Origin: Candidatus Omnitrophota bacterium
GTDB taxonomy: Bacteria > Omnitrophota > Gorgyraeia > JAGLLT01
Direction of reading: 5' to 3'
Length of the DNA: 64,000 nt
Assembly (NCBI GenBank): GCA_030632085.1
Contig: DAOVJY010000001.1
Span: forward strand, 271,402 to 335,401
Position numbers and translations under genes: made by a program. The stretch's first letter is position 1; every line of letters starts with the position of its first letter. This document shows positions 10,820-64,000 of the stretch, one piece after another. Under the pieces are notes generated by a model. It made no database searches, was not told where the DNA came from, and saw only the letters and a program-made list of their open reading frames with translations.

Positions 10820-10820
10820 T

Positions 10821-10916
10821 TTACTTATTCTTTTTCTTGTGCCTATCTCTTTTTAATCTTTTCTTGCGTTTATGTTTAGCTATTTTTTTTCTTTTTCTTT
10901 TTTTACCGCAAGGCAT
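10821..10916 (-). CDS. Small, extremely basic bS22-like ribosomal protein (31 aa), absent from the ORF track
   Basis: Translation gives MPCGKKRKRKKIAKHKRKKRLKRDRHKKKNK, which follows the bS22 pattern [20 protein letters not shown]. It sits immediately upstream of the TPR gene, with its stop 1 nt from the TPR start. Confidence 0.45.
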   Translation of the reverse strand: MPCGKKRKRKKIAKHKRKKRLKRDRHKKKNK

Positions 10917-11126
10917 TTTACACTCCTCATATAATATGTCTATTAGACGCGTTAAATAACCAATAACCAAGTTACAAGATACAAACAATATTCAAATTCC
11001 AATATCCAATCACCAAACCGCTATCCTTGTTTTATTTCTGTTTGATTATTCGAATTTGGTTATTGGTCATTGTTTGGTTATTGTATCTTGTTTCTTGTAT
11101 CTTAAAGTTATCATTTTACCCCATTA

Positions 11127-11996
11127 TTAGTAAATCGCTTTATTTAAAGGATATTCAATGATTCCAACAACTCCGGCCCGCTTGAGCTTGGGTATCAACT
11201 CTCTAACTTCTTTTTCAGATATAATGGTTTCAACCGCTACCCAATTGCTTTGAGTTAAACTGGATATAGTAGGCTTTTGCATGGCAGGAAGAATTTTTAA
11301 AATTTTCTTCAAATTTTTCTCCATAACATTCATTTTAAGGCCAACCATCTCTTCTGCCAATATCGCCCCTTTTAAAAGAAGGGCCATATTCTCAATTTTT
11401 TTCTTCTTTGACGCGTTCTTCCAGGTTTTCTTATTTGCTATCAACCAAGTCGTTGAATAGCAAACAACATCAATTATTTTAAGATTATTAGCGCGAAGGC
11501 TTGAGCCGGTTTCAGTTAATTCAACAATAGCATCAACCAGTTCCGGAACCTTAATCTCTGTGGCTCCCCAGCTAAATTCAACTTCAGCATTAACTTTGTT
11601 CCTCTTGAGATATTTCTTGGTAACATTTACCAGTTCGGTAGCTATTCTGCAACCTTTTAAGTCTCTTACTTTTTTAATAGGAGAATCCTTAGCAACGGCG
11701 ACCACCCATCTAACGGGATTAAGGCTCTGCTTGGCATATCTTAATTCAGCTACCCTGACAACATCAGATGAGTTCTCTTCAATCCAGTCGTTACCCGTTA
11801 AACCGCAATCTAAAACACCTTCTTCAACATACCTGGACATCTCCTGCGCTCTTATTAGTAGACAGTTTATCTCATCATCATCTATCGATGGTATATAAGA
11901 ACGTGAAGAACAAGCCACACTGAACCCGGCTTTTTTAAATAATTTAAAAGTTGCCTCTTGCAAGCTGCCCTTTGGTAATCCCAACTTAACTTTCAT
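11127..11996 (-). CDS. hisG: ATP phosphoribosyltransferase, long form with a C-terminal regulatory domain
   Basis: [25 protein letters not shown]... over 289 aa. No other his genes lie nearby. Confidence 0.85.
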
Positions 11997-12250
11997 CTAA
12001 TTTTTCCTCTTTTAAAACCTTATAATTTTCCTTATTTGACCACATTGCGTTTATAGCGCTTCTTAGCATCTTTCGCTCTGGTTTTTGGATTAATATCCCA
12101 TGTTTTTCGTATCTTGATAGAAGTATCACCTTTAAATCACTGGAAATTTATTTTATACTATGTATCGGGCTAATGTCAACTAAAAATATATAAATTCTTT
12201 ATATTAGACCCGGATTATGTACCTATTGCAAATATCTTATTATTTTTTCC

Positions 12251-12278
12251 TTGTAAAAGGCTTTAGGTGTGATATAAT
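12251..12278 (+). promoter_or_regulatory. Sigma-70-like promoter for the PpiD-like gene
   Basis: TTGTAA (-35), a 16-nt spacer, then an extended -10 TGaTATAAT. An AGGAG ribosome-binding site lies 7 nt before the GTG start at 12320. Confidence 0.4.
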
Positions 12279-12319
12279 TTTTCCATTACCGAATTTTACA
12301 TTTCTTAAAGGAGAAAAAA

Positions 12320-13921
12320 GTGCTTAATATACTAAGAAAAAAAGAAAACATGCGTGTAATACTTTGGGTCATATGCGTTATTATTATAGTTACCTTTGTC
12401 TTTTTCGGAATGAGGGCACCGAATATTAATCGGGGGCCTTCTTCACAATACGCCGGAATTGCCTTTGGAAAGAAAATATCAAACGAAGATTATGCCAAAA
12501 GCTACAAAGCTTGCTATAATCAAGCTCTCATGCTCTACGGAAACGAACTGCCTAAAGCCATTGAGCATCTTAATTTAAAAATGCAGGCATGGGAAAGAAT
12601 CATCCTTACAAAAGAAGCAAACAATCAACATATAGCCATCAGTGACGATAAGGTTAGAAACAGGATAATTGCCATTTTTGGGGGCCCGGAGGACTTTGAC
12701 AAAGAAAAATATGAGGTTATATTAGCTAACTATTTTAATACATCCCCACGCGCTTTTGAAAAAGAAATTAGAGATTCTCTAAAAATTAGTAAGCTTCTTG
12801 AAACCGTTGCTTCAAATATAATTATTTCTGATGAAGAAATTTTAGAAATGTACAAAATGGAAAATGAAAAAGTAAAAGTTGCCTATATTACAGTAGAACC
12901 GGCGAGTTTTGTTGATACAATTACCCCCAGCGACACTGCCCTAAAAGCATATTATAATGAAAATAAAGATTTATTTAAAACCCAACCAAAAATTAATGTG
13001 CAGTATATAGTTCTATCCACAAACAAAAACATAAGTAATGTTGAAGTGAGCCAGGAGGAAATTGAAAGTTATTATGCTTCATATAGGGAAAATTTCCTAA
13101 TTGCATTAGAAGCCGGGACGGAATCAGAAGAACCACAATACAAGCCTCTCGCTAATGTTAAAAAGGAAATTGAAACAGTTCTTTTAAAACAACAAGCTAA
13201 AGAACTAGCTCTTGATCAAGCGGTCATAGCTGAACAGCAAATCAGCGATGGTGCAACTCTTGACGAAGTCGCCAAAAAATGTAACTTAGAAATCAAAGAA
13301 ACCGGCCTTTTCTCGGCCGCTGAATCTATCCCCGAAATAGGTTGGAATTTCCAATTCTTAAAAACAGCTTTTAGTTTACAAGAAGGTGAGGAAAGCGAAA
13401 TCACTGAAATGCCTGACGGATACTACATCTTAAAGCTAAAAGAAAGAAAAAGTTCTTATATTCCGGAATTCAATGGTACAAAAGATAGAGTCAAACAGGC
13501 ATATGTGGCCAAAGAGGCGGTTGCATTAGCAAACAATAAAGCCGCCGACTATCAAGCCGACTTCAAAAATCAAATAACTGAGGTTAAAAATTTTAAAGAA
13601 ATAGCTAAATCGTTAAATTTAAAAGTAGAGGAAACCGACTTCTTTTCATACAATGACTATGTTCAGGGCGTAGGCAAGTCTCCTGATTTTAACAATGCGG
13701 CTTTTACATTAAAAAAAGGTCAAGTTTCAGATGTCATCGCCACTTCAAAAAACTTAATTATTCTAACTCTTAAAGATAAGTCTTTTATAGATAAAAAACA
13801 GTTTGAAAGTGACAAAGAAGAATTCAGTAAAAAGGCTCTTCAAATAAAAGAAGAGGAAATCTTTCAGGTTTGGCTTAATAATCTTTTGGAAAAGGCTAAT
13901 TTAAAAAATAACACACAGTAA
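12320..13921 (+). CDS. PpiD/SurA-like periplasmic chaperone, N-terminally membrane-anchored
   Basis: A single N-terminal TM segment (VILWVICVIIIVTFVFFGM) precedes a long SurA-N-like chaperone region. The start is GTG with a strong RBS. No clear parvulin catalytic motif was seen. Confidence 0.6.
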   Translation: MLNILRKKENMRVILWVICVIIIVTFVFFGMRAPNINRGPSSQYAGIAFGKKISNEDYAKSYKACYNQALMLYGNELPKAIEHLNLKMQAWERIILTKEANNQHIAISDDKVRNRIIAIFGGPEDFDKEKYEVILANYFNTSPRAFEKEIRDSLKISKLLETVASNIIISDEEILEMYKMENEKVKVAYITVEPASFVDTITPSDTALKAYYNENKDLFKTQPKINVQYIVLSTNKNISNVEVSQEEIESYYASYRENFLIALEAGTESEEPQYKPLANVKKEIETVLLKQQAKELALDQAVIAEQQISDGATLDEVAKKCNLEIKETGLFSAAESIPEIGWNFQFLKTAFSLQEGEESEITEMPDGYYILKLKERKSSYIPEFNGTKDRVKQAYVAKEAVALANNKAADYQADFKNQITEVKNFKEIAKSLNLKVEETDFFSYNDYVQGVGKSPDFNNAAFTLKKGQVSDVIATSKNLIILTLKDKSFIDKKQFESDKEEFSKKALQIKEEEIFQVWLNNLLEKANLKNNTQ

Positions 13922-14048
13922 TTTTATTTTACGGATGGTTTTTACTGCAGTTTTTTTATTCTCATAGTACTATAAATTGGAAGCATTACATAAATAAATA
14001 ACATCTCAATGTATCTAATGGTACCCCCCCCCTAAATAGTAAAGGTTT

Positions 14049-14118
14049 AATAAAAAAATAACAAGAAAACCTCCAGCTAATTAGTGCGCCTAAAATATGG
14101 CGCAAATAATACTGGAGG
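14049..14118 (-). terminator. Nested-stem rho-independent terminator for the nrdD-nrdH operon, between convergent genes
   Basis: Outer stem CCTCCAG/CTGGAGG, inner stem TGCGCC/GGCGCA, followed on the minus strand by a U-rich tract. Confidence 0.45.
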
Positions 14119-14159
14119 CCAATGAAAGACTTTCTAATCGTCTTTAAAGATTTTCTACA

Positions 14160-14426
14160 TCATAAAATGTAAGTTTTAAATTCGTCCGATTTAGGAACCT
14201 CTCCGTCCCAACGAGCTACAACACTACCATCTTTTTCTAAGATTGTCGCTGGAATATTAAGAACATCATTCATAGCTGCTTCAGTAAGGCCTTCAACTGA
14301 ATCCATATCAAGAAATGAAATCTTCAACCTGTTTGCCAAGTTCCACTTGTTTATAAAAAATTCTATTTTACTCTTAGTGGTCTTACACTTGGCGCAATTT
14401 TGTTTGCCGAATATTTTAATATGCAC
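14160..14426 (-). CDS. nrdH: NrdH/glutaredoxin-like redoxin
   Basis: CAKC (CxxC) lies near the N-terminus of an 88-aa thioredoxin-fold-sized protein directly downstream of nrdD. The start is GTG. Confidence 0.65.
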   Translation of the reverse strand: MHIKIFGKQNCAKCKTTKSKIEFFINKWNLANRLKISFLDMDSVEGLTEAAMNDVLNIPATILEKDGSVVARWDGEVPKSDEFKTYIL

Positions 14427-14464
14427 AGCTTTGCCCTCCCTAAATATATAAGGATAATAATATT

Positions 14465-16900
14465 TTATATAATGTTGTATTCACCCTTTTGACGATCTTT
14501 TAATTCACCTATTTTAGATTTATTCCAGTTATCAATTCTAGAATAATATCCAACAATTCTGGTTATACCGTAAATGTTATTTGATTCACAATGTCCGCAA
14601 TTTTCCACCAATCCCCTGGTTACCTTGCCGCAATCATTGCAAATGGTAAATTCAGGTGATATAGTCAACTGGGCCGCTTGAGTATTTTTATATGTTCTTT
14701 CCACCAGTTTAAGAATAGCCTCTTTAGACGGTTTGTTCTCACCAACAAAAGCGTGAATTATTGCACCCGACTCAATCATGGTATGAAATCTGCTCTGTTT
14801 TTGGATGCGGGTAATTAAGTCAATATCAGCATCAGCTCTAAAGTGAATTGAGTTTGTGTAATAAGGTTCATCTTTCTCGATATCACCTTTAACAACAATG
14901 TGGGCTTCAGGATAATCCTTAAGATCCACCTTGGCCAACCTTCTCGCGGCTGATTCTGCCGGTGACTCTTCCAATGAGAAATTCAAACCCAACTTCTTTT
15001 CTTCTTGTTTTGACCTTAAGAACATATGCGAAATAATCTTTAACCCCAGTTTATAAGCTTCGTCATTCTCATGAAGCTCCTTACCAATTAAAGCCTGGAC
15101 ACATTCATTAAGGCCGATAATGCCAACAATATAAGTGGCTTGATCTAAATCTATATACGGCCTACCATCCTTAGCTATCTTACCAACTTCCCACATGGGC
15201 ATACCGGGCTCACTCATTAGCTTGGCAATAAACTCTCTCTTCTGCATATGCGCCTTAAAAACTAAGTTCATAGCTTTATCTATCTCATCAAAAACTCCCT
15301 GGATATTATCCTTACCGGCTCTATAAGCTGCCTGAGGTAAGTTAACAGTTACATTCTGAAAACCACAGAACCTCATTGACTCCGGATGTTTTATCATGTA
15401 GTTATCTGTTATTTGAGTTCTGAGTCGACAACAAGCAGAAAGAGTTACCTCATCTCTATCAAAGATAAAATAAGTAGAGCCATTTTCACTGGCTATCTGA
15501 GCGGCATAATCTAAAAGTTCACGTTGCTTCGGATCCTCAAATGATTCTTCAGTAATATGAAAATCACACTTAGGGAACGCAAAAGGATGTCCGTCGCGAT
15601 CACCTTCGCGCCAAACGCTCAACATTGCTTTGGCAAATTCACGAGCCGCTTCTTCATAATCTCCGTAACTCCTGCCCGTAAGTTTACCTCCCGCACCAAT
15701 AGCTGGAATATCTTTAAGGTAATTAGGTATACCCGCGTGAATATTAAAATCAATAAATAAACTTTGACCGCCTCTGGAAAACGCGTTCTGGCTGCCTGAG
15801 AATATCAAATACTGCGCTTCTTGTCTCATCTCTTTAAAACTCATGCCTTCTACATAAGGGGCATAAAAAATATTAACATAAGCTATACCCAAAGCCCCCG
15901 CGTAATAAGCCTGCATAGAAGCTAGGTAAGTATTAAGATGTCCTGTTAGTGTCCTGGCATGAGATGCCGGAGCGCTTGATGTATCCAAATTGCCTAAGTC
16001 CAAACCGTATTTCTTAATATATTCCAAAGAATGACTACTGCAATAAACTCGGGGATATCCAAGATCATGGATATGAACCACGCCTTTTAAATGTCCTGTA
16101 GCCACATCCGTAGAGAAAACATTCTGCAGCATATACTGTTTTAATGTTGTCTCGGCTATGGCCAGATTAATCGCTTCCGGATTATTAGACGTAATATTGC
16201 TATTTTCGGCACTTTTAGAATAAATAAGTTGTTCGATATCAAAGGAGGGCATACCAATCATAGCTTGCTTTTTAAGTTTCTTGCCTAAACCTCTTTCAAA
16301 AAGTTCATTATCTACCAGCTCTCTAATAAGAGAGGTGGATATCTGTCCGATTCCTGACTTGAATATTTTTCGCTCAACACTTGAAGCTATTTCCCAAGAA
16401 AGGTCTTCGGCAATCTTGGCCTCTTTCTGAAGGGCCTGAGCAATTCTCTGTTTCTCCCAATTTAATACTCTGTCCTTAGCTAAAGGAGTAACCAGTAATG
16501 CCAAATCGGTGGAATCTGTTCTTTCCTGAACTCTTTTTCTTACTTGGAGTTTCGTTCTTAAGTCCGCTCTTTTCTCACGATAAATAATATAGGCCTTAGC
16601 TGTTCTGGCGTGGCCTGTTTCAATCAAAACTTTTTCAACAATATCCTGAATTTCTTCAATCGAAGGATTTCCATCAACAAATTTCTTTTTTAGATAAAGA
16701 GTAACTACATTAGAAAGCTCTTCCGCCAGTAGCTTGTCTTCACCGCCTACCGCCTTAGCCGCTTTAAAAATCGCGACCTCAATCCTCTCTTTTAAAAATG
16801 GAATAACTCGGCCATTCCTCTTTCTGACATGCGTAAAACAGGGAGTCGTTTTGATGCCTGATGCAACTTTATTATTTGCGGCGGCAGTACCTTCTAACAT
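14465..16900 (-). CDS. nrdD: Anaerobic ribonucleoside-triphosphate reductase (class III)
   Basis: It has an N-terminal ATP-cone, a PFL-like core, a C-terminal Zn ribbon CNDCGK...CGHC and a glycyl-radical motif RIVGYYSR. A strong RBS GGAGA precedes the gene. Confidence 0.9.
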   Translation of the reverse strand: MLEGTAAANNKVASGIKTTPCFTHVRKRNGRVIPFLKERIEVAIFKAAKAVGGEDKLLAEELSNVVTLYLKKKFVDGNPSIEEIQDIVEKVLIETGHARTAKAYIIYREKRADLRTKLQVRKRVQERTDSTDLALLVTPLAKDRVLNWEKQRIAQALQKEAKIAEDLSWEIASSVERKIFKSGIGQISTSLIRELVDNELFERGLGKKLKKQAMIGMPSFDIEQLIYSKSAENSNITSNNPEAINLAIAETTLKQYMLQNVFSTDVATGHLKGVVHIHDLGYPRVYCSSHSLEYIKKYGLDLGNLDTSSAPASHARTLTGHLNTYLASMQAYYAGALGIAYVNIFYAPYVEGMSFKEMRQEAQYLIFSGSQNAFSRGGQSLFIDFNIHAGIPNYLKDIPAIGAGGKLTGRSYGDYEEAAREFAKAMLSVWREGDRDGHPFAFPKCDFHITEESFEDPKQRELLDYAAQIASENGSTYFIFDRDEVTLSACCRLRTQITDNYMIKHPESMRFCGFQNVTVNLPQAAYRAGKDNIQGVFDEIDKAMNLVFKAHMQKREFIAKLMSEPGMPMWEVGKIAKDGRPYIDLDQATYIVGIIGLNECVQALIGKELHENDEAYKLGLKIISHMFLRSKQEEKKLGLNFSLEESPAESAARRLAKVDLKDYPEAHIVVKGDIEKDEPYYTNSIHFRADADIDLITRIQKQSRFHTMIESGAIIHAFVGENKPSKEAILKLVERTYKNTQAAQLTISPEFTICNDCGKVTRGLVENCGHCESNNIYGITRIVGYYSRIDNWNKSKIGELKDRQKGEYNII

Positions 16901-16905
16901 TCTGC

Positions 16906-17367
16906 TTATCTCCTTTCCTTATCTAATATTTGCTTGAGTTCTTTCATGAATTGATTAACATCCTTAAATTCTCTGTACACAGAGGCAAATCTAACATACG
17001 CCACCTGGTCTAATTTTCCCAAGCGCTGCATTATAAGCTCCCCTATTTCAACAGATGCGACTTCTTTATCGAAATTTCTTTGAAGAGTTCTTTCAATATC
17101 ATCTACGGTTTCTTCTAATTTTTCAACACTAATCGGTCTCTTTTCACAAGACTTCACAAGTCCTGAAAGTACCTTTTTCCTGTCAAACGATTCTCTGCGG
17201 CCATCTTTTTTAAACACCATTAAAGATACGCCTTCTATATGTTCATAGGTTGTATAACGCCTTTGACATTTAAGACATTCCCTTCTTCGTCTAATGGCAT
17301 CACCTTCCTGTGAGGATCTGGAATCAACCACTTTGTCTTCTTCGTGACCGCAATAGGGACATTTCAT
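16906..17367 (-). CDS. nrdR: Transcriptional repressor NrdR
   Basis: MKCPYCG...[12 protein letters not shown] is a zinc ribbon, followed by an ATP-cone. The ORF track starts at an upstream TTG. The ATG at 17367 (MKCPYCG) is the canonical start. Confidence 0.9.
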
Positions 17368-17406
17368 TTTTTGATTGTTCCTTTTTATCAAATTTGGCGG
17401 GAAACC

Positions 17407-17450
17407 ACACTATATTGTGTATCAGTAGCTTAATTATACACTATATTTAG
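17407..17450. promoter_or_regulatory. Tandem NrdR boxes upstream of nrdR-nrdD-nrdH
   Basis: ACACTATATTGTGT (17407-17420) matches the NrdR box consensus acaCwAtATaTwGtgt. A second, half-degenerate box ACACTATATTTAG starts exactly 31 bp downstream. Confidence 0.6.
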
Positions 17451-17530
17451 GATTTGTCAAGGTGTAAAAAAATTATAATTTTTAATTATTTTAACAAAAA
17501 AGGATAATAATAAAACCCTTACATAAGCCA

Positions 17531-17989
17531 TTATTTCTTAAGATTACGAACCTTAATACCACTTTCCTTAAGAAGTTTTTTTGATTCTTTGTCAGGATAA
17601 GCCGCCGAAGTAATTATTTCTTTTATCCCTGAATTGATAATCATTTTGGCGCAGATAATACATGGATGAGTCGTACAATATAAAACGGAGTCTTTAATAC
17701 TTACTCCGTGAACCGCAGCCTGAATAATAGCGTTTTGCTCGGCATGCAGTCCTCGGCATAATTCGTGACGCTGCCCGGAAGGCACATGCATCTGTTCCCG
17801 CAGGCATCCACCTATCTGACCACAATGTTTTAGGCCTGAAGGCGCCCCGTTATAACCTGACGCAAGTATTCTTTTATCTTTAACAATTATCGCTCCGACT
17901 TTGCGTCTAAGACAAGTCGATCGCTTAGAGACAACCTTGGTTATTTCAATGAAATATTCATCCCAGCTAGGCCTAGTATTATCCTTCAC
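17531..17989 (-). CDS. dCMP deaminase (ComEB-like)
   Basis: A zinc-dependent CDA fold with HAEQNAI...[13 protein letters not shown]. Confidence 0.85.
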
Positions 17990-17994
17990 TTTTT

Positions 17995-19257
17995 TTAAGC
18001 TTTCTGCATCGACCTAATTCGCTCTTTGTAAAGAGGAAATTTATCAGTCAATTCTTTAACTATTTCTTTAGCGGTTTTTAATTTAGATCCGTTTTCAGGG
18101 TTTTTTAAAAGCATGTCAATTATTTCAGCGATTTTTACCATTTCAGCTTCTTTCATGCCTCTGCTGGTTACCGCCGGTGTTCCCATGCGAATTCCGCTGG
18201 TAACTAACGGTGAATTCTGATCAAAAGGAATCATATTCTTATTTACCGTAATTTTGGCTTCATCTAAAATATTAGCCGCGTCTTTTCCGGTTAAACTCAC
18301 GCTTGTTACATCTATTAAAAATAAATGGGTATCTGTTCCGCCTGAAACTATTCTTAAACCTCTTTTATCCAGTTCGGATGACAAGGCAGCGGCATTTTTC
18401 ACTATCTGTTTTTGATATTCTTTAAATTCCGGCTTCAAGGCCTCCTTGAAGGCAACGGCCTTAGCGGCAATAACATGCATTAAGGGCCCTCCCTGAATAC
18501 CTGGAAATATATTTACATCCACTTTCCTGGCGTACTCTTCTTTACACATTATCATACCGCCCCTGGGGCCACGAAGAGTTTTATGAGTTGTGGTGGTTAC
18601 AAAATCTGAAACTGCAACCGGATCCGGATGAAGTTTAGCGGCAACTAAGCCGGCAATGTGAGCTATGTCCACCATTAAGTAAGCGCCTACTTTCTTGGCA
18701 ATAGCGGAAAATTTCTCAAAATCCAGAATTCTGGGATAAGCACTAGCTCCGGCGACAATCATATTAGGTTTATGCTCAAGGGCAATCTTCTCTAATTCAT
18801 TATAATCAAGCTGCTCTGTCTCTTTATTTACTCCGTAAGGCACCACTTTGAAAAACTTGCCGGAGAAATTCATCTTATGCCCGTGAGTCAAGTGTCCTCC
18901 ATGAGCTAAATCAAGGGTCATTATTGTATCACCCGGTTTTAGTACTGATAAATAAGAAGCCATATTAGCTTGAGAACCGGAATGAGCCTGAACATTAACA
19001 TGTTCAGCCCCAAAAAGCTCTTTAGCTCTTTCAATCGCCAGGCTTTCGGCAACATCCACGAACTGACAACCGTTATACCAACGCTTGCCCGGATAACCTT
19101 CGGCGTATTTATTAGTCAGAGTCGAACCCTGAGCAAAAAGAACATTTTCAGAAACAAAGTTTTCGCTGGCTATAAACTCTAAATTATCATTTTGTCTTAT
19201 AGTTTCATCTAGAATAGCCTGGAATAATACCGGATCTGCGGCTTTAAGGTTGTGCAT
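17995..19257 (-). CDS. glyA: Serine hydroxymethyltransferase
   Basis: The PLP-binding region [16 protein letters not shown] and the overall SHMT sequence. Confidence 0.95.
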
Positions 19258-19336
19258 TTTTTCTTACTCCTAGATTTAGGATTAATATTACAAAGATAAA
19301 AGTTACTATAAACAAGAATGAATTAATTTGCAAGCC

Positions 19337-19786
19337 TTATTTTGAATATTTTTTTTCAATCTCGTTAATTTTATCAACACGCCTCTGATGCCTGCCGCCC
19401 TCAAAGAAAGATCCAAACCAGATATCCAGCATTTTTTGGGCTTCTTCGACTGAAGTATATTTAGCCCCAAAAACGATAATATTAGCGTCATTATGAAGGC
19501 GTGAAAGTTTCGCCTGATCCTCATTTAAGCATAGGGCGGCTCGGACTCCCGGCACTTTATTGGCTGTCATTGACTGGCCTATACCTGTAGTACATATTAG
19601 AATGCCTTGATTGGCTTCCTTCTCGACCACCATATTAGCCACTACCAGGCCAAAGTCAGGATAATCCACACTCTGTTTAGAATCAGTCCCGCAATCAACT
19701 ACCTCGATTTTTTTAGATTTCAAATAACCTATCAACGATTCCTTTAACTCATAACCTCCGTGATCTGCTCCAATTGCAATTTTCAT
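19337..19786 (-). CDS. rpiB: Ribose-5-phosphate isomerase B
   Basis: MKIAIGADHGGYELKE... The ATG at 19786 has an AGGAGA RBS. The ORF track starts at an upstream TTG. Confidence 0.9.
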   Translation of the reverse strand: MKIAIGADHGGYELKESLIGYLKSKKIEVVDCGTDSKQSVDYPDFGLVVANMVVEKEANQGILICTTGIGQSMTANKVPGVRAALCLNEDQAKLSRLHNDANIIVFGAKYTSVEEAQKMLDIWFGSFFEGGRHQRRVDKINEIEKKYSK

Positions 19787-19799
19787 TTTTTCTCCTATC

Positions 19800-21107
19800 T
19801 TAAAACTCAATACTTAATAAACTCTCTTCTGATTCATCAACACCATTATCTTCTAAATTCTCACCCACACAATAGATTATTTTATCTTTTTTTGAATATT
19901 TGATTGGTTCGCCGTTATATGGATCTATTGGAACCTGGTCAAAATAAGCAGGTACAAGCTCATCCAGACTCTCGGGTAACTGTCCACACTCATCCTTGTA
20001 GGCCTTTAAAGCAATGAGGATTTGGGTAGTGCGTAGTTCAAAAATGTCTTTGTATTTCTGAGCAATACCCATCTCTAAGCCTGGTATACATAAAGTACAA
20101 GTAAGTTCACCCCAAAAGTTTTCTGTATACCACATTTCGCGTATCTGTTCAGGCATCCAATCTTTCGTTTCCCAGGCCTGCGCAAACTGTTCTGGATTGT
20201 CAATTTTTCCCAGGCCTTCAAAATATTGACTTGCATTTTCTATAGTTATGTCAAGATTAATAAATTTGACGTCTTTATAGTATCTTTTGCCAGCATTTTC
20301 AATTAAAATTCTAGTTATATCAGCAAATTTTCTCTTGGTTTTATTGGGCTTGAAGTAAACTTTAGTTAATAATTTCTTATACATCGACTTGTTTTTAGCC
20401 TCTTTAGCACTTCCTTTTGCAATAATGTTTATAGTCCACAACATAATATACTTATACTCCACCTGACATACCTGCTTCAGAGCTTCTTTGCTATCTTCAT
20501 ATTGGGTAAGTTGTCTAATTATGCTTTTATATTCTTTTTTGGATAAATTTATCTCAGAGTTTATTTTTAAAACCTCCTTAGTTCCTATGCTTTTGATAAC
20601 TGATCCTATCATATAATTAACCAAACCACCTTTTGCATGTTGTATCATATCTCCAAATTTAATAACTCTGAATATTTCATCAAGAGTCACTTTTTGCTCG
20701 CCTTGCTTTATAAGATATTTTGATTTTAAAATAGAAAGTTGAGCTATATTTAGCCATGAGAAAATATAATCTAATGGTTCTATTAAACCTTGAGTGTATT
20801 CAGGCACCTGGAATTTATCCTTGGTTAAACCTTCTTCAAAATACTCAAAAGTTTTTTTATTTTTATCAAGTATTTCTTTTGCAAATTCCACATCCTCATC
20901 TTTTATACCCTCTTCTAACATTTCATATATTCTATCTTTTTCACTTTCCGGAAAATACATCGCTTGATTTGCTTTATCAAAATAATAAAAAGCGTTTTGT
21001 TTTTGAGGGATGTCTTCATAAATCAAGGCAAGATCAGAATCATCAATTGGGAGCATATCCAAAGTTAGATAAATTACACCACCGATTACAATAAGAATGG
21101 CCGTCAT
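19800..21107 (-). CDS. Hypothetical protein with an N-terminal TM anchor
   Basis: A 435-aa ORF with a single N-terminal hydrophobic helix and no recognisable motifs. It lies between the tsaC::ptp fusion and rpiB. Confidence 0.5.
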   Translation of the reverse strand: MTAILIVIGGVIYLTLDMLPIDDSDLALIYEDIPQKQNAFYYFDKANQAMYFPESEKDRIYEMLEEGIKDEDVEFAKEILDKNKKTFEYFEEGLTKDKFQVPEYTQGLIEPLDYIFSWLNIAQLSILKSKYLIKQGEQKVTLDEIFRVIKFGDMIQHAKGGLVNYMIGSVIKSIGTKEVLKINSEINLSKKEYKSIIRQLTQYEDSKEALKQVCQVEYKYIMLWTINIIAKGSAKEAKNKSMYKKLLTKVYFKPNKTKRKFADITRILIENAGKRYYKDVKFINLDITIENASQYFEGLGKIDNPEQFAQAWETKDWMPEQIREMWYTENFWGELTCTLCIPGLEMGIAQKYKDIFELRTTQILIALKAYKDECGQLPESLDELVPAYFDQVPIDPYNGEPIKYSKKDKIIYCVGENLEDNGVDESEESLLSIEF

Positions 21108-32493: not shown

Positions 32494-32561
32494 AGTCACA
32501 AGTCTAAAGTCACAAGGCACAAGATACAAGATACAAGATACAAGATACAAACAATATTCAA
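32494..32561. repeat. Tandem heptad array (NNCACAA/GATACAA x ~9) upstream of purL, ending in a 30-mer shared with the 10967-10995 region
   Basis: gtcacaa gtctaaa gtcacaa ggcacaa gatacaa x4, then acaatattcaa. The string caag[a/t]tacaagatacaaacaatattcaa matches at 29 of 30 positions between 32532-32561 and 10966-10995. Confidence 0.6.
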
Positions 32562-32689
32562 TCATCAAGAAACAATTACAATGTTGCCAGTTAAAAGTTT
32601 TTATTTTATTTGCTTTTACTTAATCCTTAGAGCTTACCATTAGCAAGCTGCTAGTAAGCGTCTTAATTCTTAATCCTGTTTTTTGTTTT

Positions 32690-35607: not shown

Positions 35608-35967
35608 TTATTTAGTAAAAATCATTTTAATTGCGATAACAAGCATGCAAACTCCGAACATTCTTCTTAAAACCGTTTCGGAAATATGTTCTACAAAACT
35701 GGCTCCAATAAAACCGCCCACAAAAAAACCCATAGCAATAAATATAGCTACGGTAATATTAACCTGACCTTGGGAATAATACTTCATAGCCGCCAATAAG
35801 CCAATAGGAAGAACCATAACCGCCAGGGTTGTCCCCTGGGCGCCATGTTGAGAAAATCCAAAAAGATAAACTAACGCGGGAATCATAACAATACCGCCGC
35901 CTATACCTAAAAGGCCGCTTAGTATTCCCGCAACAAGTCCGACTACTATAAACAAGTAGTTACTCAA
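35608..35967 (-). CDS. TSUP (TauE/SafE) family membrane protein, short single-repeat form
   Basis: The GxxSGxxGxGGG signature (GILSGLLGIGGGIV) with 4 TM helices. It is about half the usual length. Confidence 0.6.
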   Translation of the reverse strand: MSNYLFIVVGLVAGILSGLLGIGGGIVMIPALVYLFGFSQHGAQGTTLAVMVLPIGLLAAMKYYSQGQVNITVAIFIAMGFFVGGFIGASFVEHISETVLRRMFGVCMLVIAIKMIFTK

Positions 35968-40143: not shown

Positions 40144-40244
40144 ATCTCTACTCCTTCATTGTTCCCTCTGGCTGTCCAGTCGGTCTTTTAAAATTAACTC
40201 ACTTTTTTTGTTAGCCCTGCGTATACAGTAGCTGCTTTTTCAAC

Positions 40245-40391
40245 TTAAAACCTTTTTTTCTCTTTTTTTTCTATCTGCACAACTTCCGAATTATGTATCG
40301 TGACCACCACCTCTCCAAAGTTAATTTGTTCTATGCAATTAATGATTTCCTCTAAAATGTTCTTGTCTTTATTATTCTGAGAGTCATTCAT
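40245..40391 (-). CDS. DUF2292/YezD-like small protein (48 aa), absent from the ORF track
   Basis: Translation gives MNDSQNNKDKNILEEIINCIEQINFGEVVVTIHNSEVVQIEKKEKKRF, which matches the YezD pattern GEVxIxVxDGKVVQIEKxEK. It overlaps the upstream small ORF by 8 nt. Confidence 0.5.
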   Translation of the reverse strand: MNDSQNNKDKNILEEIINCIEQINFGEVVVTIHNSEVVQIEKKEKKRF

Positions 40392-40593
40392 TTTTATTCT
40401 GTCCTGTTATTTCCGAAAGTCCTTTTTCTATAAATTTTGAACAGGCATTTCTAATCAAATAAGCAAATCCCATAAACGCTTCTTCTGAAAAATGCAAAGA
40501 AACGCCTTTTAAATTTATATGGATATTTCCACAAGGGCATTTGAAAACATTACCCACTTTTTCAGTTTTCTCGAGATAATTAACTTCATCCAT
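40384..40593 (-). CDS. Hypothetical small Cys-containing protein (69 aa)
   Basis: An ORF with a CPCG motif. It is the first gene of the putative DtxR-controlled operon. Confidence 0.35.
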   Translation of the reverse strand: MDEVNYLEKTEKVGNVFKCPCGNIHINLKGVSLHFSEEAFMGFAYLIRNACSKFIEKGLSEITGQNKNE

Positions 40594-40631
40594 AATAAAG
40601 CTTCCCTTCTTTTTAAATTTGATGATAATTG

Positions 40632-40646
40632 TTAGATGTCTCTAAC
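40632..40646. promoter_or_regulatory. Candidate DtxR-family operator TTAGA-N4-TCTAAC upstream of the small-ORF/TonB-dependent-receptor/exbBD/tonB operon
   Basis: ttagatgtctctaac has the same TTAGA-N4-TCTAA palindrome as the site upstream of dtxR. Its architecture matches the IdeR/DtxR box core TTAGG-N4-CCTAA. Confidence 0.4.
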
Positions 40647-40663
40647 TTTACAATCAAAAAAAA

Positions 40664-41243: not shown

Positions 41244-41290
41244 AGTATTTTTTTAAAGCATCTTATTCCTATTTGAATTATTCTCCAACA

Positions 41291-41363
41291 AATAACCCGA
41301 AAGAACTTAATCTTTCGGGTTAATGATTATAGTACCCTAAACTTATGCTAAACATAACGGATA
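41291..41363 (-). repeat. Degenerate copy (a) of the box-plus-terminator repeat family, 3' of the patatin gene
   Basis: The hairpin AACCCGAAAG-aacttaat-CTTTCGGGTT is identical to that of copy (d). The adjacent box tagtaccctaaacttatgctaaacataacggata has about 22/36 identity to the consensus. Confidence 0.5.
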
Positions 41364-41390
41364 ATTTAATTTTACAAAAAATTAGACTGT

Positions 41391-53764: not shown

Positions 53765-53812
53765 AGAGACATTCTATCAAAATTTTCTCATGTATTTTTT
53801 TCAAACTCCTAA

Positions 53813-53885
53813 TAAAAAACCCGAAAGATTAATTTCTTTCGGTTTATAATTTGGTAGCTCCAGGCCATGCTAACAATTAGGGATA
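53813..53885 (-). repeat. Degenerate copy (b) of the box-plus-terminator repeat family
   Basis: The hairpin AAACCCGAAAG-attaattt-CTTTCGGTTT is followed on the minus strand by a U6 tract. The box ttggtagctccaggccatgctaacaattagggata has about 24/36 identity to the consensus. Confidence 0.5.
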
Positions 53886-53962
53886 CCTTCAAGCTCACCA
53901 ACGCAATTGAGTATTGCTAAATTACCTCTTAGAGCAGCACTTCGTTGACCACTTTTTTAATT

Positions 53963-58680: not shown

Positions 58681-58974
58681 CTAACACCATTATTCTATCT
58701 TCTCCAAACGTGCTCATGGCAATTAGAAATGTCATAAGAATTAGGGATGTTGCTTAAAGTTTAAATTTACGCAAACACTCTATGCGGCTGTTGTTATAAG
58801 GAATTTTAATATTATACATACATATTATACATTACGCGTATATAATTTTCAAACTCAGTTCTTTGGTTCTATTTCGCATTTCATCTGTACTAACATAATA
58901 TATGAAGTTCGTATGATAAGGAGTTTGTGGCAAAATGAAAGATATGTCTGTTTATGAATCTTAGATAACTCAAC

Positions 58975-59047
58975 AATAAACCCGAAAGAAATTAATCTTT
59001 CAGGTTGTTTTTATGGTAGCCCCAACCTGTGCTGTTCACTACGGATA
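58975..59047 (-). repeat. Copy (c) of the box-plus-terminator repeat, immediately 3' of mazF
   Basis: The hairpin AAACCCGAAAG-aaattaat-CTTTCAGGTT is followed by the box ATGGTAGCCCCAACCTGTGCTGTTCACTACGGATA. The box ends 5 nt before the mazF stop codon. Confidence 0.6.
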
Positions 59048-59052
59048 CTTTA

Positions 59053-59391
59053 TTACACTCCAATAATTTCATTTAATCCTTCAACCACAAGACTTAACTC
59101 TTCAGGCAATATACTACCGGCTTTTTTTCCTAACCGCTTAACCGACAAAGTGCGAATTTGGTTTATTTTAACCCACGATTTTTTAGGTAATTTTGAACCG
59201 CTAAGTTCTAACGTTAACGGAAATCCCGCTCGCTGAGACTGACTTGTAAGAGCAACTGCTATAACAGTACCAGATCTTTCATTAAAAACTTCATGGCTAA
59301 GAATAAGTACAGGTCGTTTACCGGCCTGCTCGCTTCCTCTAACCGGATTTAAATCCGCCCAAACAACATCACCCCTCAATATTCCGGCCAT
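59053..59391 (-). CDS. mazF: MazF/PemK-family type II toxin endoribonuclease
   Basis: [26 protein letters not shown] is the typical PemK/MazF N-terminus. Confidence 0.85.
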
Positions 59392-59618
59392 TGTTCAATC
59401 TCCTCCGAAAAACCTTCCTCCGCTATAGCTTGTTCAAATGAGGAGTCTAATTTCGCGCATTCCCTGGCAAGGCGGCTATGATCAAGGCGTGCCAATTTTT
59501 CCCTAACCGCGTCCTGCACAATCTTGCTTCTGCTTGGAAATACATGGGATTTAACAAGCCGATCTAATCTAGCCAACAACTTATGTTCAATACTAATAGC
59601 TACTTTTGATGTTCTCAT
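59376..59618 (-). CDS. Ribbon-helix-helix (CopG-like) antitoxin partner of MazF
   Basis: 80 aa with an RHH N-terminus ([18 protein letters not shown]) and an acidic C-terminus. It overlaps mazF by 16 nt. Confidence 0.7.
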
Positions 59619-59732
59619 GATTGCCTCCTTTGGTATTACTATACATCATACCGGAAGTTTTTACAAGTATATTTTGAATCCTTGCTTTTATTTCGTAATT
59701 TGTCTGTAATAACATAAAATGAGGCGCCAACA

Positions 59733-59804
59733 AATAACCCGAAAGAACTTAATCTTTCGGGTTATCAACATGGTAGCCCCAACCCGTGCTGTTCACTACG
59801 GATA
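59733..59804 (-). repeat. Copy (d) of the box-plus-terminator repeat, 3' of abiEii
   Basis: The hairpin AACCCGAAAG-aacttaat-CTTTCGGGTT is followed by the box ATGGTAGCCCCAACCCGTGCTGTTCACTACGGATA. Confidence 0.6.
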
Positions 59805-59869
59805 GGTTATTTCTATTAAATCTTTGCAATTTTTTCGCCCATCATTATATCATAATTCTTTCTAAAATT

Positions 59870-60784
59870 TTATTTCCATGGTCCGGAAACTTTCCATTTC
59901 GCATTAAATTTCTCATTTTTATTAATCGCAATAAGTGGTTTAATAAGAAACTTTTCTATCTCTCTGGCTATTATGTTCAACTTTTCCGGTACATACTTAA
60001 TATCTACCTTTTTCAGAAAGGCCCTCCATAATGTCTGACGATCGGACTTTTCGTCATAAATTTCTCCGGCAAACAATGGTTTACATTGTGGTAAAAAAGT
60101 TTTACGCTGTTTAAAAGTTCTTTTTAACGCTTCAGCAAGCCTTAATCCGTCAAAGTTAAACTGACGCATCATGAGCCAAATATCATAAAAATCTTTCATC
60201 CGGCTATTAAGAAGGCCCAGTTTTATCATAGCTTCAAATTTCTCACTAATAACGCTCTCCGCCGGATATCCTTTAAGTTTAGGTTTAGGAAAATCTAAAA
60301 TAACAGGATATTCAATTATTTTCGGCTTTGGATAAATGCTATCTCCAAAGCCTAAATCAATTTGCATAGGAATGCGAGAACGCTCAAGCACTCCGACAAA
60401 CTTAACCCGCACTCCTTCATAATCGGCATCTTCTTTGATGCGTTGACCTTTCACGCCATTAGAATCAAATATAATACCATCTGAAATCACATCTATTTTA
60501 CAAATATCCTTCATCATTTTCTCAATACTAAATATCTGGTTATCATATTGCGCTGAAAAATCTATATCAAGGGTTGCCCTTCGCTCGGGCACATGCCACA
60601 CAGTAAACATCAAAGCCCCCTTAAGAATAAACTTATCCGCATATTTAGACTGACTAACACGATAAAGAAATCTCTCTATTCCATAATATTGCAAAACCTC
60701 TGAAAATGGACGATTGCTTTCTCTCGCCTTATTTTGAAGCTGAGCCCGGATAGAGGCTTTTAAATTTTTAATGTCTTTTTTCAT
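59870..60784 (-). CDS. abiEii: AbiEii/AbiGii-family nucleotidyltransferase toxin (type IV toxin-antitoxin / abortive infection)
   Basis: The nucleotidyltransferase motif KGALMF...DIDF (GG/GS...DxD), a length of about 300 aa and a 4-nt overlap with the upstream AbiEi gene. Confidence 0.75.
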   Translation of the reverse strand: MKKDIKNLKASIRAQLQNKARESNRPFSEVLQYYGIERFLYRVSQSKYADKFILKGALMFTVWHVPERRATLDIDFSAQYDNQIFSIEKMMKDICKIDVISDGIIFDSNGVKGQRIKEDADYEGVRVKFVGVLERSRIPMQIDLGFGDSIYPKPKIIEYPVILDFPKPKLKGYPAESVISEKFEAMIKLGLLNSRMKDFYDIWLMMRQFNFDGLRLAEALKRTFKQRKTFLPQCKPLFAGEIYDEKSDRQTLWRAFLKKVDIKYVPEKLNIIAREIEKFLIKPLIAINKNEKFNAKWKVSGPWK

Positions 60785-61383
60785 ATCATTGTTTCAAGCA
60801 TTGGTTTAATAATTTTATGTACACGGCAAATCTTAGCGTATTTCATTATTTCGAGTGGTTTTATGCCCTTTACGGTAACCGCTATCTTAAGTGCATCCAT
60901 GGCAATATTTACACCTATTCTATTGCGAAACTTAAAACAATCAGCGACCGTTTTAGCAAGGCTGTAAACTCTGATTTTATGCCCTTCAGCTTGATGCACT
61001 TCAACGCCGGCATTCCAAGTTTTAACTGAAAAACGATAAAATCGTACTGGTGGGTATTTAATTTTATTGGTACGAGTCCCCGCGGGAATTGCAATATCTA
61101 CATACCCGGGTATCTCGTTCGTTGCTTCATGAAAAAAAAGGGCCGACACAAGACAAACAATCCCTCTTAGCGCCTGAAGAGACGCAATGACAAGATCAGG
61201 ATGCGGTCCAAACGTATAATGAGTCATCCGGTAAAGTCCCCTGGCAATCTTCTCTATTTCACCTTCTTTTTCAAGTTCTTTAAGCGTATCCGAATGAAAC
61301 CCCGCTTTTATAATTGAAGAAAACCGTGCAATGCCACCATGTTTTTTAAAATAGTTAAACATTTTCTCTGTTTTTTGTTTCAT
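60781..61383 (-). CDS. abiEi: AbiEi-family antitoxin / transcriptional regulator
   Basis: An N-terminal wHTH-like region (FSSIIKAGFHSDTLKELEKEGEIEKIARGLY) and a C-terminal AbiEi domain. It pairs with AbiEii. Confidence 0.7.
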   Translation of the reverse strand: MKQKTEKMFNYFKKHGGIARFSSIIKAGFHSDTLKELEKEGEIEKIARGLYRMTHYTFGPHPDLVIASLQALRGIVCLVSALFFHEATNEIPGYVDIAIPAGTRTNKIKYPPVRFYRFSVKTWNAGVEVHQAEGHKIRVYSLAKTVADCFKFRNRIGVNIAMDALKIAVTVKGIKPLEIMKYAKICRVHKIIKPMLETMI

Positions 61384-61407
61384 AGCCTCTCCGTATAAAT
61401 TGTCATT

Positions 61408-61421
61408 ACTTATAAATAAGT
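61408..61421. promoter_or_regulatory. Perfect 14-bp palindrome ACTTATAAATAAGT in the abiEi promoter, a candidate AbiEi operator
   Basis: ACTTAT/ATAAGT inverted repeat 24-37 nt upstream of the abiEi ATG. AbiEi proteins autoregulate through promoter inverted repeats. Confidence 0.4.
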
Positions 61422-61539
61422 ATATACACTTTATACGATTATGTCAATGCTTTTTTTATTGCAGGGAAAAGTTACTATACACATAGCACAATGCCAATTC
61501 TTTATAACAACTATTCATAATGATATGGTGAATAAAAAA

Positions 61540-61618
61540 TCCTCTCCTAATTTTATTTTAAGAGAGGACTTCTATACTAAACTATGGTAGCCCCAACCCG
61601 TGCTGTCCACTACGGATA
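61540..61618 (-). repeat. Copy (e) of the box-plus-terminator repeat, with a different hairpin
   Basis: The hairpin TCCTCTCCTAA-ttttatt-TTAAGAGAGGA is followed by the box ATGGTAGCCCCAACCCGTGCTGTCCACTACGGATA (1 mismatch to copy d). A U6 tract follows on the minus strand. Confidence 0.6.
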
Positions 61619-61904
61619 CTTTATTTATATTTACAGTTGATGGCATATAACACTAGCGCTCATAGGCCACTGGACAGAAAACGTGGCGTTCCTTGTGCAG
61701 CGATTGCATCAGACATTGAATTATATTACTCCAGAGATGATGGAATTAAAGACTGTCGCTTAATTAATCTGTCTGTTAAGCCCGGCATAGCTCATTATGT
61801 CTCTTTAATTCATTCTTGGCTTGTGCTGGGAAAACGTTAAGAAAAATAATGCCTAGGAAAAGATACGCTAGCCTTGTATCGTCAGGAGGAATGATTAAAA
61901 CACT

Positions 61905-63497: not shown

Positions 63498-64000
63498 TCA
63501 CGGATACTCTATTTCCATCAAATCTTCGCAATTCCTTATTCCCATTATTATATCATACTCCGCATTTTTATAAATCATAATTTTAGCCGTTTTTTCTCTT
63601 GGATTTACTATTATTTCTTTTACAAATTGCCTTATAAACTTCTTCTTTTCCTCCATAGCACCATGCTCTAAAACATCGTTAAAGTTATCTAAATAGCCTA
63701 ACATCTTCTTTGTAATTCTCTCTATATCAGTTTTCCCTTCCAGGTTTGTTGTAATTTTAATACGTTCATCTAAAAGCATATCTCTTGTATGCTCCAGCTT
63801 ATTTATATTGGCCACTGCCCGGTCTAAATTGAGGCCCCTTTCTATCGCTTCCTCCCAATTCCTGATTTTTAAAGCTATTTCCTTAATCTGTATATCCAAT
63901 TCCCTGAGCCTGTTATCTGACCTATCCTGCATTAGAGAGATCTTTTCTCTCAGCTTATTTTCTAAATCTTCTCTCCACGTTCCGGTATCCAGCTTTTCCA
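63498..64000 (-). CDS. Large serine recombinase, C-terminal coiled-coil/tail region (partial; N-terminus beyond the window end)
   Basis: The ORF is open upstream to position 64000 (...EKLDTGTWREDLENKLREKISL-MQDRSDNRLRELDIQIKEIALK...). The coiled-coil and the terminal EEKKKFIRQFVKEIIVNPREKTAKIMIY match the typical large-serine-recombinase C-terminus (EEKRELIRLLIDKIEV...KIEIHY). Confidence 0.5.
   Translation of the reverse strand, partial: EKLDTGTWREDLENKLREKISLMQDRSDNRLRELDIQIKEIALKIRNWEEAIERGLNLDRAVANINKLEHTRDMLLDERIKITTNLEGKTDIERITKKMLGYLDNFNDVLEHGAMEEKKKFIRQFVKEIIVNPREKTAKIMIYKNAEYDIIMGIRNCEDLMEIEYP

Follow-up and report, generated by a model that had tools for sequence, protein, structure and literature searches.

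Box-and-terminator repeat units in an Omnitrophota genome as probable integration junctions of a composite tRNA-Glu island

Repeat units of about 75 bp, each made of a 35-nt box followed by a terminator hairpin, separate small toxin-antitoxin and abortive-infection modules in a 64,000-nt stretch of the genome of Candidatus Omnitrophota bacterium (assembly GCA_030632085.1, contig DAOVJY010000001.1, forward-strand positions 271,402 to 335,401; hereafter, the window). A preliminary description of this DNA suggested a cassette array in which the units could be recombination sites of a new kind. Here we present evidence that they are most probably attachment (att) junctions, an attR and internal scars, of integrative elements inserted serially into the 3' end of a tRNA-Glu(CTC) gene, a reading to which we assign a probability of roughly 0.85. 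In this reading each unit joins three stretches of DNA. The first, the element (P) arm (AAATAAAG-TATCCGTAGTG-AACAGCACGG, about 30 nt), includes the final codons and the stop of a gene for a large serine recombinase. Next come the terminal 13 nt of tRNA-Glu and one further base (GTTGGGGCTACCA-T), and then a spacer, followed by a copy of the rho-independent terminator that belongs to the tRNA gene. The earlier suggestion survives to the extent that the units are best explained as derivatives of recombination sites, but the kind of site is a known one, accounted for by 14 nt of tRNA-Glu 3' end, a tRNA terminator copy and an arm from a serine-integrase gene end. What had looked like a new repeat becomes an annotated 31-kb composite tRNA-Glu island with six datable junctions, in an uncultured cold-seep bacterium.

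Repeat units and the origin of their parts

The pattern ATGGTAGCCCCAACCYGTGCTGTYCACTACGGATA has exactly three matches in the window, all without mismatch and on the plus strand (59013-59047, 59770-59804 and 61584-61618), and it did not occur in any of 100 dinucleotide-preserving shuffles, which bears out the three near-identical boxes reported at the outset. Single-base differences separate them (GTGGACAG versus GTGAACAG; CACAGG versus CACGGG). Nearly all genes of the locus lie on the minus strand, and on that strand each of the three copies has the proposed layout, with the box followed by a spacer of 6-15 nt, a stable hairpin and a T-run. Two finer points of the same description also hold: the hairpin of the copy at 61.6 kb (TCCTCTC...GAGAGGA) is unrelated to the hairpin family of the other units, and the mazF stop codon (59053-59055) sits 5 nt upstream of the box in u58. 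Searching for repeats, aligning the copies with MAFFT and scanning with an nhmmer profile made from them revealed three more diverged units in the window, u53, u41 and u36, which share the hairpin family AACCCGAAAG...CTTTCGGGTT. The genes that precede them (carbonic-anhydrase, patatin and tonB, respectively) are not toxin-antitoxin cassettes. The part of the box that corresponds to the tRNA end is identical at 10 of 14 positions in u53 and again at 10 of 14 in u41, while in u36 this part is deleted and the native terminator is kept. The six units are as follows.

61535-61627, minus strand: u61, with P arm AAATAAAGTATCCGTAGTGGACAGCACGG (61626-61598), tRNA-Glu 3'-end repeat GTTGGGGCTACCAT (61597-61584), spacer and unrelated terminator hairpin (about 61540-61568); probable junction between the newest segment (Panacea, DUF2971, integrase remnant, DUF7931 and four-transmembrane (4-TM) genes) and the AbiE module
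59729-59813, minus strand: u59, with P arm and tRNA-Glu 3'-end repeat (box 59804-59770), spacer and tRNA-Glu-type hairpin (59735-59762); probable junction between the AbiE and MazEF modules
58972-59056, minus strand: u58, with box (59047-59013), spacer and tRNA-Glu-type terminator hairpin (58979-59006); probable junction between the MazEF module and a segment with metallo-beta-lactamase (MBL), PCMT and carbonic-anhydrase genes
53811-53893, minus strand: u53, with a box identical to that of u59 at 24/35 positions and a tRNA-Glu-type terminator; it follows the carbonic-anhydrase gene and precedes a segment with TetR and resistance-nodulation-division (RND) efflux genes
41283-41372, minus strand: u41, with a box identical at 23/35 positions and a tRNA-Glu-type terminator; it follows the patatin gene and precedes a DtxR/TonB-dependent iron-uptake segment
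36045-36105, minus strand: u36, with a P-arm remnant AAAATAAATTATCCGCAGT (36105-36087) followed by the putative original tRNA-Glu terminator (36080-36053); distal island boundary, its terminator and the tauE promoter being orthologous to those of a relative with an empty site

A 66-codon open reading frame (ORF) on the plus strand (61643-61843), antisense to the neighboring genes, lies in the 286 nt that separate the 4-TM gene from u61.

The source of the box lies just outside the window. An exact match of the 4-TM protein led to a scaffold locus of the European Nucleotide Archive (L006, on a 349 kb scaffold assembled from a cold-seep metagenome of the South China Sea, PMC9357000) that reaches 8.5 kb past the window end. 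It holds a tRNA-Glu(CTC) gene at 5203-5280, 3.2 kb beyond the window and on the same strand as every unit. The last 13 nt of this gene and the next base (GTTGGGGCTACCAT) form the 3' end of the three near-identical boxes, a four-copy direct repeat with a chance expectation of 0.03 in the window. The 16 nt directly after the tRNA gene, TCACTACGGATACTTT, are in turn the perfect reverse complement of the box 5' edge, AAAGTATCCGTAGTGA. A profile hidden Markov model of the units matches the tRNA end and terminator at the empty site of a relative (E = 1.3e-10), u58 has 88% identity to that region in the relative L019, and the unit hairpins are identical to the native tRNA-Glu terminator at about 22-28 of 30 positions, counted by eye on the alignment. 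Because both the profile and the alignment match the empty-site tRNA end and terminator, we regard the unit hairpins as being, or having been copied from, the tRNA-Glu terminator. The original would be the hairpin of u36, which is followed by the tauE promoter.

The 5' part of the box has a different source. A 19-mer from the 3' end of a recombinase gene in the relative L010, stop codon included (GAAATAGATTATCCGTAGT), was searched with up to three mismatches. It matches only u36, u58, u59, u61 and the recombinase remnant of the window (chance expectation 0.04), a result well above chance that makes the box 5' part homologous to the terminus of an integrase gene. Consistent with this, the P arms of the units share homology with the last 19 nt of the window's remnant (GAAATAGAGTATCCGTGAT). 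Other identities for the box were considered and rejected: a tRNA 3' end alone would require a T-arm, which is missing, and by inspection neither a CRISPR repeat nor a T-box fits.

An alternative is that the box and terminator are selected together as a 3'-untranslated-region RNA element, acting downstream of many operons as a stabilizer, a processing site or a protein-binding site. On the coding strand a stop codon always comes just before the unit, a strong terminator closes it, and the hairpins keep 91% pairing across copies. The sole box difference between u58 and u59 (CACAGGTT versus CACGGGTT, CACAGG/CACGGG) is also complementary to the sole difference in the 5' arm of their hairpins (AACCTG versus AACCCG; stretches compared, 59013-59047 with 58979-59006, and 59770-59804 with 59735-59762). 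Pairing of the box with the terminator 5' arm is possible in both units, which may be due to chance or may reflect an alternative, anti-terminator-like structure. Yet Rfam contains no such family, since searches at gathering and at permissive E-value thresholds returned only tRNA-Gln and chance matches. Single-sequence folds gave no structure common to the boxes of the six units, the predictions differing among the A, B and C variants, and covariation in the hairpins is no better than in shuffles, as expected of homologous copies. Other terminators in the window lack the box and have unrelated hairpins, all copies are confined to the island, and the components of the unit can all be traced more simply, to the tRNA end, its terminator or the end of the integrase gene. 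We therefore consider selection as an RNA element very unlikely; box and terminator are linked because both descend from the end of the tRNA gene.

The tRNA-Glu island and its empty site

Syntenic loci of relatives were found through homologues of YbaB, which is encoded just upstream of tRNA-Glu. Three of them (L019, L020 and L021) have an empty site, with the order ybaB, tRNA-Glu(CTC), AAT, the hairpin sequence AAACCCGAAAGATTAATTTCTTTCGGGTTT with its T-run, a TTGACG promoter and tauE, followed by DUF6627, C39/TPR, purB, purL, purQ, purM and purD. This is the gene order of the window from 35967 down to 26100. Alignment by blastn places the boundaries of the insertion precisely: the left flank aligns up to the tRNA CCA (L006 5280), non-syntenic DNA begins at L006 5281, and similarity resumes at the u36 hairpin (window 36081; L019 10439). 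Since the flanks align up to these two points, 31,170 bp have been inserted exactly between the CCA end of tRNA-Glu and its native terminator.

36082-64000, no strand assigned: composite island, part within the window; it runs on for 3.25 kb past the window end to tRNA-Glu(CTC)
35608-35967, minus strand: tauE, the first core gene after the island, which directly follows tRNA-Glu and its terminator in the empty-site relative

All six units lie inside the insert and are co-oriented with tRNA-Glu. A total of 89 kb of DNA from the same genome was examined, 41 kb of it free of units, with none in window positions 1-36000 and none in L006 1-5200. Similarity among the boxes also follows position. Measured against u59, identity is 34/35 in u61 at 5.6 kb from the tRNA gene, 35/35 for u59 itself at 7.4 kb and 34/35 in u58 at 8.2 kb; it falls to 24/35 in u53 at 13.4 kb and 23/35 in u41 at 25.9 kb, and the box is truncated in u36 at 31 kb. 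The G+C content of the island shows no anomaly.

Closer relatives, with YbaB proteins 79-80% identical (L011-L017 and L022-L025), have the same 115-nt left end after tRNA-Glu followed by different defence cargo. In L011 the cargo (10555-20306) comprises a phospholipase D (PLD) nuclease, DUF3644/EC042_2821 and a type I restriction-modification system; in L022 (764-6216) it comprises an IS256-family transposase and DUF6088-AbiEii. Because the left end is shared and the cargo differs, the tRNA-Glu site is a hot spot whose occupancy varies. The first ORF after the left end in these relatives is always a conserved one of 74 aa with unknown function (L011; L022; L023 3768-5053).

Orthologues of the MBL gene, which adjoins u58, were tried as another route to an empty site and rejected, as they are not syntenic in relatives and gave no such site. 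The contig of a 98%-identical strain from a sister sample (L007) begins too near the MBL gene to show the unit. In that strain an extra gene for a metallo-beta-lactamase-fold protein of about 200 aa (L007 57-664) stands between the leader and the MBL gene, and it is absent from the window genome (58681-58727). Exact look-ups of AbiEii and of the MBL protein gave no record.

The confinement of the units to one insert bears on a further explanation, a dispersed repeat of the repetitive extragenic palindrome (REP), bacterial interspersed mosaic element (BIME) or miniature inverted-repeat transposable element (MITE) kind that happens to include a terminator and is dispersed among intergenic regions by transposition. 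Six copies occur within 26 kb and, as in REPs, a GTAG on the plus strand of the box precedes an imperfect palindrome. Assembly behavior is suggestive as well: position 1 of the Logan contig L001 (window about 59745) falls within the u59 hairpin, so that the repeat breaks short-read assemblies. However, the other 41 kb examined contain no copies, all copies have a single orientation, ORF annotation of the island revealed no REP-associated tyrosine transposase (RAYT) or other transposase, and the units are co-linear with the tRNA-Glu whose end and terminator they copy. A degenerate box pattern with 17 fixed and 4 two-fold positions, which fits all box variants, matched 185,579 species genomes and the metagenomes of the Joint Genome Institute (JGI) only by chance, within coding regions, and had no match in IMG/VR; nor did an attL-type pattern find anything in viral contigs. 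A transposed repeat is, in our judgment, hardly credible.

Serine recombinase remnant and proposed mechanism

Among the annotated ORFs of the island, the only trace of an integration enzyme is a gene fragment.

63498-64000 within the window, minus strand: 5'-truncated large serine recombinase; 192-aa ORF at L006 8456-9034, of which a 144-aa ORF starting with ATG lies within the window

The 192-aa ORF matches the C-terminal part of the phage-type integrase family phrog_95 (E = 6.7e-8), and in the 93%-identical relative L010 the adjoining upstream frame encodes a PF13408 recombinase zinc-ribbon domain (E = 3.4e-10). These two matches together identify the ORF as a 5'-truncated large serine recombinase. 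A homologue search with the fragment retrieved four short fragments and no full-length protein, and the recombinase is seen only as C-terminal fragments (L006 8456-9034; L010 1-689). A sequence search of the PDB with the fragment returned nothing.

When the u61 arm is joined to the sequence after the tRNA gene (the attL arm), an attP can be rebuilt that reads AAAGTATCCGTAGTGAACAGCACGGG-TT-GGGGCTACCATCACTACGGATACTTT. Its arms are perfectly inverted over 15-16 nt, symmetric about the TT of CACGGG-TT-GGGGC, and the dyad symmetry spans about 50 bp. A similar symmetric layout is typical of the attP sites of large serine recombinases of the phiC31 and Bxb1 types. We put the chances at about even that the catalyst was a large serine recombinase, as opposed to a tyrosine integrase.

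The latter is a serious alternative. A tyrosine integrase, since lost, may have made the att scars at tRNA-Glu, the serine recombinase remnant being an unrelated passenger and the three near-identical boxes having multiplied through homologous recombination or gene conversion between units. Most tRNA-targeted islands, 910 of 937, use tyrosine integrases (10.1101/2020.12.28.424599). The direct repeat of 14 nt plus a terminator of about 45 nt is also more typical of tyrosine-integrase identity blocks, and the internal junctions do not have the symmetric arm expected of a serine-integrase attP. Against this, Pfam and PHROG annotation of the ORFs from tRNA-Glu to tauE revealed neither a tyrosine integrase nor a piece of one. 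The similarity of the unit arms to the terminus of the serine-recombinase gene is far above chance, the dyad symmetry of the rebuilt attP is that of large serine recombinases, and serine-recombinase islands of like layout are known at ssrA. This scenario is possible, and we hold it to be somewhat doubtful.

Whichever enzyme acted, the proposed att junctions could have arisen as follows. An incoming circular element would bring a copy of the tRNA 3' end in its attP, and recombination would restore the tRNA at the left junction (attL) while displacing the earlier tRNA end, its terminator and the older modules outward. The empty attB would read tRNA-Glu...GGGGCTACCA and continue into the spacer of u61, u59 or u58. 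Repeated integration would produce a 31-kb composite island of six segments with the newest nearest the tRNA, and the hairpins would still serve as terminators for the module upstream of each. Serial integration in this order is what we infer from the co-orientation of the units and their restriction to the insert, the fall in identity with distance, and the varying cargo of relatives.

Two modules illustrate the smallest segments.

59870-61383, minus strand: AbiEi/AbiEii module with its own promoter, between u61 and u59; no integrase
59053-59618, minus strand: MazE (ribbon-helix-helix, RHH)/MazF module with its own promoter, between u59 and u58; no integrase

Pfam confirmed the identities of MazE(RHH)/MazF and AbiEi/AbiEii, and the cassette promoters are near-consensus; the earlier account of self-contained modules delimited by units is correct in this respect. 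They would be integrase-less segments, 0.76 kb (MazEF) and 1.8 kb (AbiE) in size, that resemble cis-mobilizable elements (CIMEs), lie between intact-looking sites and could be mobilized only in trans. The proposed tie between the units and toxin-antitoxin or abortive-infection cassettes does not extend to the whole island, as units also bound segments of 5-12 kb with efflux, lipid and iron-uptake genes.

The small modules prompt comparison with an integron-like platform, in which the units would be a new attC-type class folded as single-stranded DNA and cassettes would be captured singly. In its favor, the modules are small (0.76 and 1.8 kb) and self-contained with a unit at the boundary of each, and toxin-antitoxin genes are typical cargo of chromosomal integrons. 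Nevertheless, the annotation of all ORFs from tRNA-Glu to tauE contains no IntI-type integrase, the cassettes have their own promoters, and the units derive from the end of a tRNA gene. Inspection found no conserved GTTRRRY/RYYYAAC core sites, a single GTTGAGT in u58 being a chance occurrence; the units are neither integron attC nor dif sites, as had been recognized from the start. Of all the explanations examined, we find this one the least plausible.

Several observations weigh against serial integration at tRNA-Glu. The relative with the empty site is a rather distant one (68% identity in YbaB, about 73% at the nucleotide level), and no second genome with the boxes was found, hence no cassette-level variation was seen at the units. 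The island holds no intact integrase, and no unit adjoins the 5'-truncated remnant. The genes of the older segments (36-58 kb) are housekeeping-like (RND efflux, lipid enzymes, iron uptake) and of ordinary G+C content, and these segments could have arrived by rearrangement, not as mobile elements. Finally, the internal junctions carry terminator hairpins and not the symmetric arm TCACTACGGATAC expected after the tRNA repeat; this implies that older elements had another right arm, one mimicking the native tRNA flank, or that the history was more complex. Alternatively, the three near-identical boxes may have spread by recombination between units. These caveats on the recombinase, the right arms and the older cargo leave the conclusion on what the units are untouched.

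A bolder extension is that the three near-identical units are still active sites, with MazEF and AbiE as free-standing mini-cassettes captured and shuffled at the tRNA gene by a large serine recombinase acting in trans. The three units keep exactly one recombinase half-site length of element arm. If true, this would be a serine-recombinase analogue of the integron in which each cassette has its own promoter and a tRNA-type terminator; we think present-day mobility of this kind improbable, though less so than the RNA-element, transposed-repeat and integron-like explanations.

The sequences show several other features. A second short repeat, with GAAGTTCGTAT and ATTAATTGTTA, occurs at L006 7361-7395 and 9034-9068, at window 58896-58925 (inverted) and at L010 1660-1710. 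Its copies come from two genomes and stand before cargo genes and right behind the recombinase remnant; the repeat could be a shared promoter or operator or another junction motif. The first cargo after tRNA-Glu (L006 5513-6926) consists of an ORF with a weak match to MqsR-like toxins (115 aa, E = 4e-4) and an MqsA/helix-turn-helix (HTH)-SocA-Panacea fusion (338 aa), a predicted Panacea-type toxin-antitoxin pair. The 520-nt gap between the DtxR-like repressor and TonB-dependent receptor genes (window 40144-40663) holds two unannotated short ORFs with ribosome-binding sites. Outside the island, tandem heptamer arrays (CAAGATA/CAAGAAA) form a long imperfect palindrome at window 10900-11060 and 32500-32590, two unrelated intergenic regions upstream of minus-strand genes.

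Comparison with known islands

Island growth by integration next to tRNA genes is a well-known process, and the 75-bp units are no new kind of repeat. The locus adds a further case, beyond Dehalococcoides and picocyanobacteria, of serial integration at a stable-RNA gene, perhaps through a large serine recombinase, and it indicates that defence and toxin-antitoxin modules of less than 2 kb can lie between intact-looking att sites. There is also a lesson for annotation: where a box and terminator are repeated after accessory genes, they should be compared with the ends of nearby tRNA genes before a new RNA motif or recombination site is named.

With chromosomal integron arrays the locus shares co-oriented small modules, toxin-antitoxin pairs among them, separated by a repeat resembling a recombination site. 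It differs in having no IntI and no attC core sites, in its own cassette promoters, and in a repeat that comes from tRNA and integrase gene ends. CIMEs and site-specific accretion of the ICESt1/ICESt3 type have been reviewed (PMC5704250). In contrast to those elements, conjugation and mobilization genes are absent throughout the tRNA-Glu locus, the modules are far smaller (0.76-1.8 kb), and the target is a tRNA gene and not fda or another protein-coding gene.

The tycheposons and tRNA-flanked islands of Prochlorococcus offer a nearer parallel, in which new arrivals displace older elements outward and partial tRNA copies and integrase fragments lie scattered through the island; large serine recombinases serve a minority of tycheposons (Hackl et al., 10.1101/2020.12.28.424599). 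Repeated integration at one tRNA gene, with nutrient-uptake and defence modules as cargo, is common to both. Here, however, the host is an uncultured cold-seep bacterium, there is no replication module, and the partial tRNA is only 13-14 nt plus the terminator.

The closest precedent appears to be the ssrA genomic islands (ssrA-GIs) of Dehalococcoides (McMurdie et al. 2011, PMC3146451), tandem islands that have a repeat of the tmRNA gene 3' end at their boundaries. A conserved motif derived from the element, not alignable to the RNA gene, lies just upstream of each repeat; insertion is in the T-loop/T-arm region; and many of these islands are without an integration module and have been read as cis-mobilizable elements (PMC3146451). 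They use a CcrB-type large serine recombinase, and the truncated gene of the tRNA-Glu island also belongs to the large serine recombinases. The target in our case is tRNA-Glu(CTC) where theirs is tmRNA, and the repeat includes the gene's terminator (about 60 nt in total) where theirs measures 20 bp. The end of the recombinase gene overlaps the arm at the right edge, unlike the ssrA-GI integration module at attL, and only a truncated integrase is present. Cargo differs as well, with defence, toxin-antitoxin, efflux and iron-uptake genes in the tRNA-Glu island and rdhA in Dehalococcoides. The two nevertheless have the same overall design, with tandem islands after a stable-RNA gene, repeats of its 3' end, an element-derived motif upstream of each repeat, and an insertion point in the T-arm region.

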